Shown piece by piece: positions 54,495-60,559 of a stretch of 64,000 nucleotides of DNA (positions are counted from its first letter, which is position 1; each line of letters starts with the position of its first letter). The translations under genes and the position numbers were made by a program. Source of the DNA: an uncultured bacterium (GTDB taxonomy: Bacteria; Muiribacteriota; UBA6191; CAZXTJ01; CAYOHP01); assembly GCA_964403795.1 (NCBI GenBank), contig CAYOHP010000008.1, forward strand, positions 16,987 through 80,986, given 5' to 3'. The notes below the pieces were generated by a model. The model was not told where the DNA came from and did not search any database. It worked only from the letters and a program-made list of their open reading frames with translations.

Positions 54495-55482
54495 CATGCA
54501 GAGCCCCAGCACGTCGACACCGGAGAACGGCACCCCCCTGGTGGTGGGCGCCGGCGGGGTCGGCCTGCTGCTCGCCCACCTGCTGTCGAGCCAAGGACCT
54601 CCCTCCCCGGAGGTCCCGGCGGTCCGGGTCCTGGGTCGGGGCGAAACCCTGGAGCGCCTCCGGTCCGAAGGCTTCGTGGCCTTCGACGCGGGCGTCCACA
54701 CCCATCGGCCCGAAGCCCAGGATTGGGAGGACTGGCACCGGGACCCGCGCGTCGGTCCGGTGCTGGTAGCGGTCAAGGCGGGCGACCTCGAGGCGGTCCT
54801 CAGGAGCCTGGCCCTGCGTCCCGAGGGGATCTCCTGCCTCTACCTCCTCCAGAACGGCCTGGGCATCCTGGAACTCGCCCGCTCCCTCCTCCCGGACGTC
54901 CCCACGGTGAGGGTGAGCTGTTACACGGGAGTCGCCCGCGAGGGCCGCAACACCATCCGGGTCCTGGGCCGGGGTCCCTTCCGGATCGCCGCCGAAGGAG
55001 CCGGCCGCTCCCACCTGGGGTGGCTGCCGGCACGCCTCGAACCCACCGGGTTCACCGTCCAGGTGGTCGGATCCCCGCATCGCATGGAGTGGGAGAAGGC
55101 GATGTTGAACCTGGTGGTGAACGGCATCTGTTCCGTGCTGGCGGCACCCAACGGAGCGGTCCTCGAGTCCCCCGAGCTGGTGGAACTGGCGCGCGAGCTC
55201 GTGCGCGAGTGCGTGGCGGTAGCCGCCAGCCGCGGGGTGCGCGTCAAGAAGGACATCGAGGAAGCGGTCCTGGAGGCGATCGCCCGGGTCGCGGGCAACC
55301 TGAACTCGACCCTCCAGGACCTGCGGGCCGGTCAGCCCACCGAGCTCGACTTCCTCCACCACCGGGTCGTCGCCTGGGCCGAGGAAGGCGGCATCCCCTG
55401 CCCCGTGACCCGGACCCTGCTCCGGCTGGTGCGGTCCCACGAGACGAGCCGGCGACTGGCGGAGCCCCGGGTCACAGCATGA
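54495..55482 (+). CDS. panE: 2-dehydropantoate 2-reductase (ketopantoate reductase, ApbA/PanE family).
   Basis: N-terminal Rossmann motif VVGAGGVGLLLAHLL. ApbA central and C-terminal regions (LQNGLG...NxxxN-like NLVVNGICSVLAAPNGAV, and the ApbA_C helices). Confidence 0.7.
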
Positions 55483-56863
55483 GCAGCGGGCGCTGGTTGG
55501 CGAAGATCTCGACCGAGCCGTCGGAGCTGACCATCAGGGCGACCCCGACCCGGCTCGCCTCCCGGCAAGCCTGGTAGCGCGCTCCCCGATGGCTGGTACG
55601 CGCCTCCGAGGAGAGCTTCACGATCGCACCGTAGGCCAGGCAGCTTCCCTTGGCGTCGAGGATCACCGAACCGTCCAGCGAGGCCAGGTCGCAGAGGACC
55701 TCTCGGGGGACCTTGGTCACGTCGTGCTGCACGAACCCGATGTCCAGGCCCCGGTCCGAGATGTGGCGGTCGGGGTACTCGAGGCGCTGGTCGGGATCGA
55801 TGAGCGGCGTCGGCTCGGCACCCGAGGGCAGGATCACGAACAGGCCGCCCCGGCGCTGGAAGCTCATGTCCAGGGCCGCCGAGTAGATGTGGTGGGCGAT
55901 CTCGGCCACCCGCCGCTCGTCGTGGGGCATGCCCTGGATGGCGCGGCGCAGCACCGCTGCGTTCTCGATGTGGTTCCAGACCTGCCACTGGCCCTGGGAG
56001 AGGGACGCCACCATGGTCCCCTTGTGCAGGCAGACGATGTCGCCGTGCTCGCTCAACCCGATCGCCAGGCTGGCCCGGACCGAGGCGCGCCCCAGGGCCT
56101 CGAAGCTGCGCGGCCGGTAGACCCTGAGGTCCCGGTCCCGCTGGTACCGGTCCTCGGTGATCGACATCAGGCCCAGGACCTTGCCCTCGCGATCCAGGCG
56201 CAGCGCGGTGTTGCGCCCGTCGGTCACGGCCAGGTAGCGGCGGTTCTCCAGGACGTCGAGCGGGAAGGTCCCCCGTCCCCCGGTACGCCGGCTGACGATC
56301 ACCCCGTAGGAGATCTTGGAGTTCTCGTAGGTCTGCTGGGAGATGCTCCGCAGGTGGAGCAGCATCGGGGTGGGATCGAAGCGCAGCTTGGCGACGCTCC
56401 AGACGTAGCGGGCCACCGACAGCGATCCGATGTCGATGTGGAACGGCAGGATGTCGGTGCGCCGGCGCTGGCTCACCGCCAGGCGGGAGACCGTCGAGAG
56501 GCTTTCCACCAGGGTACCGACGAAGTCCGCGAAGGACCGGAGCGCCTCCCGGTCGAGGCGCGGGATCGGGACCCCGGCGAGCGTCCCCACCTTGCAGGCG
56601 ATCCCCTTGCCCTCGCCGAGCCGGACCCGCACCCGGAGGACGGCACGATCCCGCTTGTAGACGGTGATGTCGCCGAACTCGCCGCGTCGGGGGGGGTTGG
56701 ACTGGGTCCACATCCCGAAGCTCAGATGGGGGAACGGGCGTTGCAACGACGTCAGCAGTGAGACCATCTGCTGAAGATCGAAGATCTCCTTGATGGATTC
56801 CTTGGTGCGTTCACCGAGGACGACATCGCCCGACATGGCCCAGCTCCAGCCCGCGCCAAGCAT
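55472..56863 (-). CDS. Protein with a C-terminal diadenylate-cyclase (DAC/DisA_N) fold whose catalytic motifs are substituted. The N-terminal ~330 aa are an unknown domain.
   Basis: The C-terminal 130 aa align motif-by-motif with DisA/CdaA DAC domains. RRGGLFVIL matches the GGLIVVG/RKIGALIVI region. LDGSVIL stands where the DGA motif would be. GARYQACREASRVGVALMVSSDGSVEIF matches [24 protein letters not shown] in B. subtilis DisA. The canonical T-R-H-R appears here as A-R-Y-Q. Start is at ATG 56863 or 56836. Confidence 0.6.
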   Translation of the reverse strand: MLGAGWSWAMSGDVVLGERTKESIKEIFDLQQMVSLLTSLQRPFPHLSFGMWTQSNPPRRGEFGDITVYKRDRAVLRVRVRLGEGKGIACKVGTLAGVPIPRLDREALRSFADFVGTLVESLSTVSRLAVSQRRRTDILPFHIDIGSLSVARYVWSVAKLRFDPTPMLLHLRSISQQTYENSKISYGVIVSRRTGGRGTFPLDVLENRRYLAVTDGRNTALRLDREGKVLGLMSITEDRYQRDRDLRVYRPRSFEALGRASVRASLAIGLSEHGDIVCLHKGTMVASLSQGQWQVWNHIENAAVLRRAIQGMPHDERRVAEIAHHIYSAALDMSFQRRGGLFVILPSGAEPTPLIDPDQRLEYPDRHISDRGLDIGFVQHDVTKVPREVLCDLASLDGSVILDAKGSCLAYGAIVKLSSEARTSHRGARYQACREASRVGVALMVSSDGSVEIFANQRPLLML

Positions 56864-57001
56864 AGAGCCCGGGAGTCGACGGGAGTCGAGGGATCTGATC
56901 CGGCCCGATCCTGGTCCCTCGACCCGACAATTCGTGGCCGCCCGGAGCCGGGATCCGGGAGGTCCACCGGTGCCGACCGCGGTCGCCCGGCGACCACCCG
57001 G

Positions 57002-59056
57002 CTAGCGGGAACAGCAGCCTGCGGATTCCTCGCAGGCGGGCTCCTCGGGGACGGCCTCCGGCTCGCACCCATGCTCGTGGCTGCAGCCATGGTCATGGCG
57101 GACGCTGGGCACCGCCTCGGGGCACTCGTGACCGTGGTGCCCGTCGTGGGGATCGGTCGGGGTCGCCTCGGCCGCGCAGCAGCCCTCCGTCGAACCGCCG
57201 AAGGGCAGGTCGTCCAACCGGATCACCTGCTTGAGGAGGCCCCGAGGTCCCTGGCGGAGCAGGGCCGAGAGGAAGGCCAGGGTCAGCACGATCCCGGCCG
57301 CCAGCTGCCAAGGTCCCGGCTCGTGGTGGCCGGCCCCCGGTACCCCGGCCACCGCGGAAGCCCGGATCCCGGGTACGAGTTCGACCGCCAGGCCCGCCAC
57401 CAGGCAGGTCCCGATCACCGTGACCACGAAGAGGGCGGCGGTGCCGAACCCGTGCATGCGCCGCAGCACCGCGAAGGTCGTCAGGTTGGTGGCCGGACCG
57501 GTGAGGAGGAAGGCCAGCACCGCCCCCGGTGCCAGGCCCTTCTGCAGCAGGACGGCCGCGATCGGGGTCGCGCCCGAGGCACAGACGTAGACCGGCATCC
57601 CGACCAGGGTCATCACCAGGATCTGCTCCAGGACACCGAGGCCGGCCAGGGATTCGAGCGAGAGATGGGGTTGGATCAAGGCGGCGACCCCCAGCCCCAC
57701 CAGGATCCAGGGACCGGTATGGTCGACCAGCTCCACCATCCCGTACCGGAACGCGACTCCCAGCCTTCCCCCGGAACCCGGGTGGAGCGAAGGGGAGATC
57801 GGATCGCCCTCGTGGACCCCGCCCGCGGCGCGGTCGGGCACCTCGGGGGACCAGGCGGAGACCAGGAGTCCGGTCCCGAGGGCCACGCCCACCGCGGCCA
57901 CCAGCCTCACCAGGGTGAACTGCGTCCCGAGCAGGGGGACCGAGAGCAGCAGGGCATCGATGCCGAGCTCGGGAGTGGCGACCAGGAAAGCGATGGCGGC
58001 GGCCATCGGCGCTCCCCTCGACACCAGACCCTGGTACACGGGCACCACGCCGCAGGAACAGATCGGGAGGGGCAGCCCGAAGACCATCCCCTTCATCGCC
58101 TGGCGGAAGCGGCCGCCCGAGCGCAGCCAGGCGATCCCTGCCTCGGGGAGCATCGCATGCACCAGGCCCGCCGCCAGGAAGCCGAGGAGCAGCGCCGGGG
58201 CACTCTCGAGGAAGAGGTGGCGGAAGGCCTCGAGGGCACCGGGACCCTCGTGGTCGTGGCCCATCAGGAACAGGGCTCCCACCGCCAGCAGGGCCCCGGT
58301 ACCGGCCCAGTGGGGGCAGTTGTGGGTCCGCTCCGAGAAGCCCTCGGGACCGGTCTGGTGGAGGATCACGTGGAGCACGCCGCCGGCCACCAGGGCGGCC
58401 ATCATCCCGCCCGCGACGCCGTGGAGCGGCAGGGAGTCGCCCATCCCGGCATAGCCGACGGCGGTGCTGGCGGCGATCGCGGCCAGGGCCGCGCCCGCGT
58501 ACAGGACGCCGAAGGCCGGACGCAGGGCCCACCAGACGAGCAGCCCGACCGGCAGGCGATGGATCACGATGCCGGCCACCACCGCATTCGAGAGGTCGGG
58601 GCCCAGGCCGCCGGCACCTCCGGCGGCCGCGGCCAGGGCGGCACCGTCCAGGGCGCTGTGCAGAGCCAGACCCAGGGCCGCCAGCGCCAGCACCAGCCGG
58701 TGGCGGGTTCCCAGGGGGCCGGAGACCCGACGCTCGGCCCAGGTCGGCAGCAGCAGTCCGGCCGTGAAGGGAAGGACGGCGAGGACCCCGGCCTCGGCCA
58801 GGGCATCGGGGAGCAGGTGCCCGAAGCAGAGCCCCAGGATGGACACCAGCACGAACCCGTCGAGCAGCTGGAGGCCCATGGCGCTGCCCCGGAGGATCCA
58901 TCCCATGAGCGGCCCGCACGCCAGCACCACCGTCGAAAGGATGAGCCCGGTCAACAGAACGCCTCCGGGCTCCAGGTTACCCCGTGGATCGGCTGCCGGT
59001 CCGCTTCTCCGGTGGCGGGCACCTCGGGCCCCCCCGACGGTCCGTCGTGCTAGCAT
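57002..59056 (-). CDS. Metal-ion permease. It has a DUF318/ArsP-type core with a CSC motif and a His/Cys-rich cytoplasmic tail. The N-terminal half may be ZIP-like.
   Basis: About 14 TM helices. GLPLPICSCGVVPV is the hallmark CxC motif of the UPF0718/ArsP (SO_0444-type) permeases. The C-terminus HDGHHGHECPEAVPSVRHDHGCSHEHGCEPE...CCS is a metal-binding tail. The N-terminal helices carry HSALDGAAL and IVIHRLPVGLL, which resemble ZIP-family metal sites. ATG proposed at 59054-59056. Confidence 0.6.
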   Translation of the reverse strand: MLARRTVGGARGARHRRSGPAADPRGNLEPGGVLLTGLILSTVVLACGPLMGWILRGSAMGLQLLDGFVLVSILGLCFGHLLPDALAEAGVLAVLPFTAGLLLPTWAERRVSGPLGTRHRLVLALAALGLALHSALDGAALAAAAGGAGGLGPDLSNAVVAGIVIHRLPVGLLVWWALRPAFGVLYAGAALAAIAASTAVGYAGMGDSLPLHGVAGGMMAALVAGGVLHVILHQTGPEGFSERTHNCPHWAGTGALLAVGALFLMGHDHEGPGALEAFRHLFLESAPALLLGFLAAGLVHAMLPEAGIAWLRSGGRFRQAMKGMVFGLPLPICSCGVVPVYQGLVSRGAPMAAAIAFLVATPELGIDALLLSVPLLGTQFTLVRLVAAVGVALGTGLLVSAWSPEVPDRAAGGVHEGDPISPSLHPGSGGRLGVAFRYGMVELVDHTGPWILVGLGVAALIQPHLSLESLAGLGVLEQILVMTLVGMPVYVCASGATPIAAVLLQKGLAPGAVLAFLLTGPATNLTTFAVLRRMHGFGTAALFVVTVIGTCLVAGLAVELVPGIRASAVAGVPGAGHHEPGPWQLAAGIVLTLAFLSALLRQGPRGLLKQVIRLDDLPFGGSTEGCCAAEATPTDPHDGHHGHECPEAVPSVRHDHGCSHEHGCEPEAVPEEPACEESAGCCSR

Positions 59057-59110: not shown

Positions 59111-60559
59111 ATGGAGACCCCGATCGCAGGCCGCCGTCCCCAGCGGGCCGCGACCGCCACCAAGGCCTTCGGAACCGGCCGGCGCGAGAGCCACGACGCG
59201 TCCCCGTTCTACGCCCGCTTCGAAGCTCCCGAGATGCGCCGGTCCGACGACCTCGACCCGGAGCCCCGGAGGGTGTCCGAGCCATGCGTCCTGGGCGACT
59301 CCCGTCGGCTCCTCGACCATGTGCGCCCGGCTTCGGTGGCGCTGGTGGTGACCTCACCTCCCTACTTCGCCGGCAAGGAGTACGAGCTGGCGCTCGGCCA
59401 GGGGCACATCCCCGGTTCCTACCTCGAGTACCTCGGGATGCTCCGGGACGTGTTCGCGGCCTCGGTCGAGGCCTTGGAACCGGGAGGCCGGATCGCCGTC
59501 AACGTCGCCAACCTGGGCCGCCGCCCCTACCGCAGCCTCTCGGCGGACGTGATCCGCATCTTCGAGGACCTGGGCCTGCTGCTCCGGGGCGAGGTGATCT
59601 GGCAGAAGGCCCAGGGGGCCACCGGGAGCTGCGCCTGGGGCTCCTTCCGCAGCCCGGTGAACCCGGTGCTCCGGGATCTCTCGGAGCGGGTGGTGATCGC
59701 CAGCAAGTGGCGGTTCGACCGGGCCGTCGCACCCGCTCTGCGGCAGGCCCGCGGCCTGCCCTGGGAAGGCTCGCTCACCGCCGACGAGTTCATGGAGGCC
59801 ACCCTCGACGTCTGGAACCTCCCCCCCGAGAGCGCCCGCAAGGTGGGTCACCCGGCGCCGTTCCCGGTCGCCCTCCCCCAGCGCCTCATCGACCTCTACA
59901 CCTACAAGGGCGACATCGTCCTCGATCCCTTCATGGGTGCGGGGAGCACCCTGGTGGCGGCGAAGCGGTCCGGGAGGCTGGGCATCGGCTTCGACACCGA
60001 CCCGGCCTACGTGGAGCTGGCCCGGGACCGCCTGCGGGACGAGCCACGCGAGCCGGGCGGGGCTCTCCACGACCGCGCGGCCGCCTCGGGACAGCCGGTC
60101 CGGACCCTGGCCGAATCGCTCCTCCGGGAGGCCGGCTTCGAGATCCTGGCGACCCGGACGCCGGTGCCGAAGTCCGGGGTGGCCCCCGATTTCGTCCTCC
60201 GCAGCACCGACGGGGGAGAGTGGTTCGCGGACCTCACCGGTTCGGTCACGGCCCGTCCGCGCTCCGGCCTCTCGACCCTGGAGACCGCCGCGGCCGCGGT
60301 GGGGCGGGCCGCGGCCCTGGCGGCTCGGGCCCCTGGCAAGCCGGTGCTGCTGCTGTCCACCGACGTTCCCTCCAAGGGGCCCGCAGCCCAGCTGCTCACC
60401 TCGGTAGGTCCCGGGATCGTGTTCGACGTCCTCGACCTGGGGTCGTCGGCAGCCCTTCAGCGTCTGGCCCGCTATGCCGCCGAGGGCGCCGAGGCCGGGC
60501 CCATTCCCGGATTCTGGAGAGGGCGCGACTTCGGACCCGGGGTCAGGTTCCGATTGTGA
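59111..60559 (+). CDS. DNA methyltransferase of the β-class (N6-adenine or N4-cytosine) with a ~180-aa C-terminal extension of unknown function.
   Basis: Motif IV VVTSPPYF precedes motif I VLDPFMGAGSTLVAA, which is the β-class order. The N-terminus may instead begin at the internal ATG near 59234. No restriction endonuclease gene is evident nearby. Confidence 0.7.
   Translation: METPIAGRRPQRAATATKAFGTGRRESHDASPFYARFEAPEMRRSDDLDPEPRRVSEPCVLGDSRRLLDHVRPASVALVVTSPPYFAGKEYELALGQGHIPGSYLEYLGMLRDVFAASVEALEPGGRIAVNVANLGRRPYRSLSADVIRIFEDLGLLLRGEVIWQKAQGATGSCAWGSFRSPVNPVLRDLSERVVIASKWRFDRAVAPALRQARGLPWEGSLTADEFMEATLDVWNLPPESARKVGHPAPFPVALPQRLIDLYTYKGDIVLDPFMGAGSTLVAAKRSGRLGIGFDTDPAYVELARDRLRDEPREPGGALHDRAAASGQPVRTLAESLLREAGFEILATRTPVPKSGVAPDFVLRSTDGGEWFADLTGSVTARPRSGLSTLETAAAAVGRAAALAARAPGKPVLLLSTDVPSKGPAAQLLTSVGPGIVFDVLDLGSSAALQRLARYAAEGAEAGPIPGFWRGRDFGPGVRFRL

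Follow-up and report, generated by a model that had tools for sequence, protein, structure and literature searches.

A divergent diadenylate cyclase family protein with a second, non-catalytic DAC fold in an uncultured Muiribacteriota bacterium

A 64,000-nucleotide stretch of contig CAYOHP010000008.1 from an uncultured Muiribacteriota bacterium (hereafter the window; about 72% G+C) carries a minus-strand gene for a protein with two diadenylate cyclase (DAC) folds. The protein consists, in order, of an N-terminal α/β domain, a DAC fold devoid of catalytic residues (the pseudo-DAC), and a C-terminal DAC domain of catalytic type. The C-terminal domain retains the residues common to all DACs, as do the members of a large family that curated models miss. 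On balance, this pattern favors a regulated, active dinucleotide cyclase built from the three modules. The product is best annotated as a divergent, probably active DAC-family protein, neither degenerate nor part of a metal-transport operon.

DAC enzymes were linked in 2026 to anti-phage immunity and to products besides cyclic di-AMP (c-di-AMP). The novelty here lies in a divergent DAC family that contains an internal dead DAC copy, is large, and is invisible to the curated models tested.

The open reading frame (ORF) at 55472–56863 encodes 463 amino acids, as an earlier note on this DNA had stated. The likely start is M10 (ATG at 56836, with GGAG 8 nt upstream), which is shared with homologs and with the public gene call and gives a protein of 454 residues plus stop (gene 55472–56836). 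The identical protein, P0001, is called at 454 amino acids on four public contigs. Residue numbers follow the 463-residue ORF, with the likely start as residue 10, and the coordinates of motifs and genes were verified by translation. The protein has no transmembrane or hydrophobic segment (the 19-residue Kyte–Doolittle mean peaks at 1.14) and is therefore expected to be cytoplasmic.

Conserved residues of the C-terminal DAC domain

The C-terminal DAC domain comprises residues 316–463 (55475–55918, on the minus strand like all parts of this gene). A single-sequence phmmer search against the PDB returned nothing; the register was obtained by aligning a profile of the family's DAC region (A4) with HMMER to two solved cyclases, 2fb5 (CdaS) and 8ofo. 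The DGA motif corresponds to D397-G398-S399 (55667–55675). The G-T-R-H-R-A-A motif corresponds to G427-A428-R429-Y430-Q431-A432-C433 (55571–55585 for G427 to Q431), in which the Gly and the first Arg are retained. The V-S-E-E-t-G motif corresponds to V445-S446-S447-D448-G449 (55517–55528 for S446 to G449), in which the Ser is retained and D448 aligns to the second Glu. The register and the structure comparison bear out the earlier assignment of the domain as DAC-like. The substitutions of DGA by DGS and of TRHR by ARYQ, described in the earlier note, are likewise real and not the result of mis-registration.

Conservation was counted in an alignment of 137 family members, each of at least 390 amino acids. 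D397 and G398 are invariant (137/137). G427 is found in all 137 members and R429 in 136, and S446 in all 137 and D448 in 135. The 11 closest relatives, at 52–66% identity, keep all six residues. The positions of S446 and D448 have metal- and phosphate-binding roles in CdaA. The catalytic signatures had been described as replaced; at these near-invariant positions they are kept.

Position 399 is Ala in 130 of the 137 members, and Ser399 is private to the window sequence within its clade. Positions 430 and 431 are variable (T/S/L/Y and A/K/R/Q, respectively), and the family consensus at the T-R-H-R position is (G/S/A)-R-T-(A/K/R). Because the same residue pattern is conserved across the 137 members, a G-x-R lacking the His and the second Arg, together with S-x-D-G, is read from the alignment as the family's own signature and not as decay of this gene. 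The term degenerate overstates what is a family rule.

The retained residues include those that DACs have in common. In a survey of about 1200 DACs, only D68, G69, G103, and R105 (EcPanS numbering) are fully conserved (PMC13640721, 2026 preprint). D75 and R108 of T. maritima DisA have been tied to metal binding and ribose contacts (PMC13640721). The earlier suggestion of possible inactivity relied on the loss of essential residues. The essentiality of RHR was shown only by a triple RHR-to-AAA mutant, which is dead (PMC4568413). This mutant also lacks the universal Arg. As for the DGA motif, the active DAC PanS has a Phe at the third position (HDGFH) (PMC13640721). In addition, defense-associated DACs with only select DGA and RHR residues are active and produce c-di-AMP or cyclic UMP–AMP (cUA) (10.64898/2026.08.10.743927). 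The step from residue loss to inactivity is not supported, and divergent but catalytically equipped seems a better description of the domain than degenerate or probably inactive.

A second DAC fold and the extent of the family

The N-terminal ~330 residues, previously taken for a single unknown domain, form two domains, the second of which is a DAC fold. This pseudo-DAC comprises residues 158–312 (55928–56392). Its assignment is based on structure comparison and profile–profile comparison (hhalign); a profile of this middle domain finds no sequence-level match in the PDB. Both DAC folds of the protein are backed by structure comparison. In the hhalign register, neither the Asp of DGA nor the G-x-R nor the acidic residue is present in the pseudo-DAC, which has invariant residues of its own, namely Y179, E180, D215-G216, T219, G274-D275, W293, and H298. 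R289 is present in 120 of the 137 members and is Ser in the window protein.

The N-terminal α/β domain (residues ~10–135; 56459–56836) is built from two helices, five strands, and one long helix in sequential order. It carries a conserved LPH motif (P45, H46) and W52, and is presumed to be a sensor or regulatory module. Derivation of this domain from a DAC fold was considered and rejected (hhalign probability <1%). The first ~140 residues are variable in the family, and the N-terminal domain is variable or replaced in distant members. Most relatives match profile positions ~158–457 in an exhaustive profile search; therefore, the conserved core consists of the ~150-residue middle region and the DAC domain. 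Within the close clade, the mean pairwise identity is 0.60 for the N-terminal domain, 0.66 for the pseudo-DAC, and 0.58 for the DAC domain, and all three modules are under similar constraint.

The exhaustive search, run against 1.84 billion cluster representatives, detects 1529 clusters at E ≤ 1e-3, 913 at E ≤ 1e-10, and 149 at E ≤ 1e-30. The window clade is a single 50%-identity cluster in this search. A word-indexed search yields 12 relatives, 11 at 52–66% identity and one at 26–29%. A repeat homolog search with alignment A2 (E ≤ 1e-10) added only P0095 to the clade already found, and a search with the DAC domain alone found nothing. Pattern scans of IMG/VR did not detect the family, and a phage collection contains one fragmentary record, labeled 'Bacteriophage sp.'. 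A contig pattern scan gave a single locus, in Agarivorans, which was rejected as an HlyD-type membrane-fusion protein with a chance match to ISQQTYE (hhalign probability 21%).

Despite its size, the family is missed by Pfam thresholds, NCBIfam, and PADLOC. The Pfam DAC model matches 47 of 97 members at E ≤ 0.01 (best 3.6e-10), and two relatives pass its gathering threshold, with 31.2 and 33.8 bits. No other Pfam family is found in more than one of the 97 members at the same E-value. NCBIfam gives only a weak local match, to the DS-2C anti-phage protein NF053872. PADLOC gives no match for the window protein, ten relatives, a related Bacillus protein, or the neighboring permease. These scans agree with the earlier proposal of a non-canonical DAC from an undescribed family, as Pfam, NCBIfam, and PADLOC gave neither a curated model nor a characterized member. 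Galperin (2023) reportedly defines 22 DAC families.

The closest known architecture is that of CdaG/DS-2C (CBASS-DAC, Liu-DS2, NCBIfam NF053872), compared here by description only. CdaG/DS-2C is composed of DACNG, DACNH, and DAC domains in that order and makes c-di-AMP in vitro (PMC13640721; 10.64898/2026.08.10.743927). DACNH has been described as related to DAC only very distantly and as catalytically dead (PMC13640721). Like CdaG/DS-2C, the window protein is soluble and multi-domain, with ~320–330 non-catalytic N-terminal residues preceding a C-terminal-type DAC. It also has a dead DAC fold just before the DAC domain, where residues 158–312 compare with DACNH as described, and keeps only select DGA and RHR residues, with which DS-2C still makes c-di-AMP. 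Of the NCBIfam models, NF053872 matches the DAC domain best (E 6e-8). However, the match of 31.5 bits misses the 630-bit cutoff and covers only ~80 residues (384–458, aligned to profile positions 412–491 of 576). Besides DAC, no Pfam family matches the window protein at E ≤ 1, with the presence of DACNG and DACNH models in the library unconfirmed. The window protein is also shorter (454 residues, not about 550–575), and its DAC domain ends at the C terminus, without the C-terminal helical bundle. Its neighbors are a permease, a panE-like gene, and a methyltransferase, with no adjacent cGAS/DncV-like nucleotidyltransferase (CD-NTase) or effector gene.

The window protein shares D-G, G-x-R, and the Ser plus acidic residue at the same positions with the canonical PF02457 enzymes DisA, CdaA/DacA, CdaS, and CdaM. 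It differs from them in having A-R-Y-Q for T-R-H-R and SSD for SEE, and in the α/β domain and pseudo-DAC as extra modules. Unlike in DisA, the DAC domain is C-terminal, with neither the linker nor a helix-hairpin-helix match; the NCBIfam DisA model matches relatives weakly (E 0.016–0.06). The N-terminal transmembrane helices of CdaA and CdaM and the YojJ helices of CdaS are absent. PanS, the minimal DAC of Panoptoo (PanDA), is similarly a divergent DAC in which only D, G, G, and R are strict, and it makes c-di-AMP or cUA. However, PanS has ~150 residues and no extra domains and always occurs with a 2TM-beta effector, whereas the window protein has 454 residues in three modules and no such neighbor.

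Proposed activity and competing explanations

We infer catalysis, its product, and a regulatory role of the first two modules as follows. The C-terminal DAC would bind ATP and a divalent metal via D397/G398, G427/R429, and S446/D448, as canonical DACs do. Head-to-head pairing with another DAC domain would let it form c-di-AMP or a cyclic dinucleotide close to it. The N-terminal domain, a presumed input or sensor module, would act with the pseudo-DAC to gate the pairing or the active site. The protein is likely active because the DAC-universal residues are kept and because PanS and DS-2C are active with select DGA and RHR residues.

Several features weigh against this proposal. Ala replaces the Thr preceding RHR, a residue in contact with the phosphate backbone in S. 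aureus DacA (PMC6368335), and the His and second Arg of RHR are gone. The adenine-stacking aromatic residue of DacA and CdaA aligns to the aliphatic I414. The window clade departs from the family consensus at K444 (Met), and R289 is Ser in the window sequence and its two closest relatives. A search with PF02457, a check suggested in the earlier note, does match the DAC domain at E 4.2e-5, but the score of 23.6 bits misses the 27-bit gathering threshold. Finally, no receptor, phosphodiesterase, or c-di-AMP riboswitch was seen in the window.

These features could instead indicate a pseudo-enzyme or nucleotide sensor, in which the C-terminal DAC binds ATP or c-di-AMP without catalysis and serves as a receptor or scaffold. 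We consider this option, which the earlier note had raised, unlikely. The loss of the Thr, His, and second Arg of T-R-H-R, the dead RHR-to-AAA mutants (PMC4568413), the sub-threshold Pfam score, and the departures of the clade at K444 and of the window sequence at R289 all point in its direction, and the dead DAC fold in the same chain offers a precedent for lost catalysis. However, the DAC-universal residues and the Ser/acidic pair are conserved in the clade and in the 137 members, unlike in the pseudo-DAC. The mutant evidence comes only from a triple change that also takes away the universal Arg, and the defense-associated DACs are active with incomplete motifs.

A second alternative, which appears improbable, is a conflict or anti-phage module, that is, a stand-alone or loosely attached immune cyclase akin to CdaG/DS-2C, of which the window copy would be a chromosomally fixed descendant. 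The DAC region of DS-2C is the best NCBIfam match, and in the window a type II DNA methyltransferase gene is located on the far side of the permease. Distant members occur in defense or mobile contexts, including a cyclic-oligonucleotide-based anti-phage signaling system (CBASS) in A. vitis, a Bacillus plasmid, insertion sequence (IS) elements, a DarT/MmeI-type locus, and a DEAD/Helicase_C/MZB protein. In one subfamily, the largest, 80 metagenome loci were sampled and reduced to 67 unique genes. Their contigs range from 36 to 66% G+C and show no conserved neighbors, which suggests horizontal transfer. No neighbor cluster occurs in more than three of the 67 loci, and the recurrences that were traced are redundant copies of one contig (e.g., L038–L040). 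The sample speaks against a defense role in another respect, since the 120 nearest neighbors are mostly housekeeping genes; they contain 134 Pfam families, none of which occurs more than twice. PADLOC is blank for the 11 family members and the related Bacillus protein, phage and viral collections essentially lack the family, and no effector gene is attached. In addition, the window clade shows synteny and has the appearance of vertical inheritance.

In a speculative and quite improbable variant, the dead and live DAC folds would pair face-to-face and asymmetrically within the one chain, with a single catalytic center, and the product would not be symmetric c-di-AMP. The product could then be a dinucleotide, either linear or mixed, or a nucleotidylated acceptor bound at the pseudo-DAC surface of conserved residues Y179-E180, D215-G216, R289, W293, and H298. 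Such a protein would represent a new class of stand-alone signaling enzymes with at least 900 clusters at 50% identity. In the window lineage, this enzyme might synthesize a housekeeping messenger and be linked to the neighboring metal exporter.

If family members are active, as the regulated cyclase favored here would be, c-di-AMP-type signaling is probably under-counted by surveys that rely on DGA/RHR motifs or Pfam cutoffs. The under-count would include Alphaproteobacteria with plasmid-borne members (Agrobacterium, Paracoccus). The internal dead copy also provides a natural system for the regulation of DAC pairing.

The permease and other gene neighbors

The gene upstream of the DAC gene, at 57002–58954 on the minus strand, encodes a permease of 650 amino acids as called. 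It is co-directional with the DAC gene, and its stop lies at 57002, 138 nt from the first ATG of the DAC gene and 165 nt from the likely start. The CSC motif (at residue 299) and the His/Cys-rich C-terminal tail (16 His/Cys among the last 69 residues) are present as the earlier note reported. The protein matches Pfam ArsP_1 (5.5e-42, 144 bits). Its match to the SO_0444 Cu/Zn efflux model NF033936 of NCBIfam reaches 223 bits in two stretches and misses the 300-bit cutoff. By these scores, the permease is classed in the ArsP_1 superfamily, related to SO_0444 but not its equivalog. A Pfam scan finds no RCK_C, CBS, USP, or other known c-di-AMP-binding domain on it.

The window and four of the five loci examined from the 52–66% relatives have an ArsP_1 permease gene immediately 5′ of the DAC gene and in the same orientation, 69–165 nt away. 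Loci L004, L006, and L007 hold orthologs of 54–56% identity with the permease in this arrangement. In L009, the permease is nearby, but a 788-residue gene on the opposite strand sits between it and the DAC gene. The close-clade loci also share the panE-like gene, the methyltransferase, DUF423, Hpt, and Ldh. Thus, the permease adjacency sits inside general synteny and may be merely inherited.

In relatives, the permease gene overlaps the gene upstream of it by 4 nt (L004:4183–7931, L009:1436–5088, and L006:1–2237), which places its operon partner on the side away from the DAC gene. The overlapping gene encodes an FGE-sulfatase domain in L004 and L009 and is cut by the contig end in L006; it is absent from the window. 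This partner is possibly copper-related.

The spacer between permease and DAC gene (56837–57001, minus strand) shows no conserved element in an alignment of four loci. A scan finds no promoter or terminator consensus in it, and folded as RNA over its full length it shows no significant structure (z −1.47). The permease stop is directly followed, at 56975–57000 on the minus strand, by a GC-rich palindrome (GGTCGCCGGGCGACC) that has no T-tract and may be a terminator hairpin of the high-GC type; it is not conserved in the relatives.

A functional pair of cyclase and permease is very unlikely. In such a pair the two genes would be co-transcribed, and the dinucleotide would control metal export or the metal status would control the cyclase. 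The pairing recurs in the window, L004, L006, and L007, with the permease nearby in L009, and c-di-AMP regulates ion transporters. This recurrence is offset by the wider synteny of the same loci, the intervening gene in L009, the overlap of the permease with the gene on its other side in L004, L006, and L009, the featureless spacer, and the lack of a known c-di-AMP-binding domain on the permease. In addition, ArsP_1 is absent among the annotated neighbors of nine distant relatives inspected individually, and is not among the most frequent Pfam families of the 120 neighbors at the 67 unique metagenome loci. The proposed link to metal transport is accordingly weak: the adjacency is confined to one small clade with broadly conserved synteny, is broken in L009, and is missing at about 75 independent loci of more distant relatives. 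Members of the family stand alone, and no partner gene is conserved with them. The permease is probably a neighbor and not a functional partner, and the position of the DAC gene behind it is best read as lineage-specific synteny in a small, vertically inherited clade.

On the other side of the DAC gene, a ketopantoate-reductase-like (ApbA/PanE) gene at 54496–55482 on the plus strand converges on it with a 3′ overlap of 11 nt. This neighbor is kept in L007, L009, and, one gene removed, L004. Divergent from the permease, a gene at 59111–60559 (plus strand) encodes a type II N6/N4 DNA methyltransferase of 482 amino acids (PADLOC MTase_II, 1.3e-73) with ~170 extra C-terminal residues that have no family match. 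It is followed by a DUF423 gene, an arrangement kept in L007, and no restriction enzyme partner of it was identified. The window contains no Rfam family (c-di-AMP riboswitch included), no tRNA, and no second DAC-like ORF.

Outside the close clade, the settings of family genes are diverse. P0012, at 26% identity in the multiple alignment the most divergent of the full-length relatives examined, is encoded 83 nt downstream of, and co-directional with, a gene for an HD + HD_assoc (dGTPase-type) phosphohydrolase (L008:334–2896). In L012, the family gene follows that of a 1642-residue DEAD/Helicase_C/MZB protein. The neighbors are AAA_15/AAA_21 genes in L011 and DUF7226 in L019. In L020:1353–7738, the P0047 gene overlaps by 4 nt the end of a gene for a 1373-residue Eco57I/MmeI-type methyltransferase, downstream of DarT, which suggests that P0047 is translationally coupled inside a defense island.

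Several members are carried on plasmids. A Bacillus plasmid member is located between an AAA ATPase and HNH endonuclease pair, a NucS-like nuclease, and integrases, a Paracoccus plasmid member is flanked by IS elements, and a Vescimonas plasmid member lies among conjugation genes. On an Agrobacterium vitis plasmid (NZ_AP023285.1; L015:6971–12771), a 426-residue member is convergent with a type II CBASS operon 118 nt away. The operon is complete, with patatin, CD-NTase, ThiF-like, and JAB genes. The arrangement resembles the published CBASS-DAC, but the DAC architecture differs.

A Bacillus cereus plasmid (NZ_CP040341.1; L018:4897–9231) encodes a 502-residue protein with a related DAC-like C terminus that has another residue at the position of the universal Arg (F-G-T-G-T-K-A-A); the same family match recurs on eight further B. 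cereus plasmids. The protein matches neither NF053872 nor PADLOC. Directly downstream of its gene is a type I CBASS pair, made up of a SMODS cyclase and an S_4TM effector. This protein may be a CBASS-associated DAC-like protein that truly lacks the catalytic Arg.

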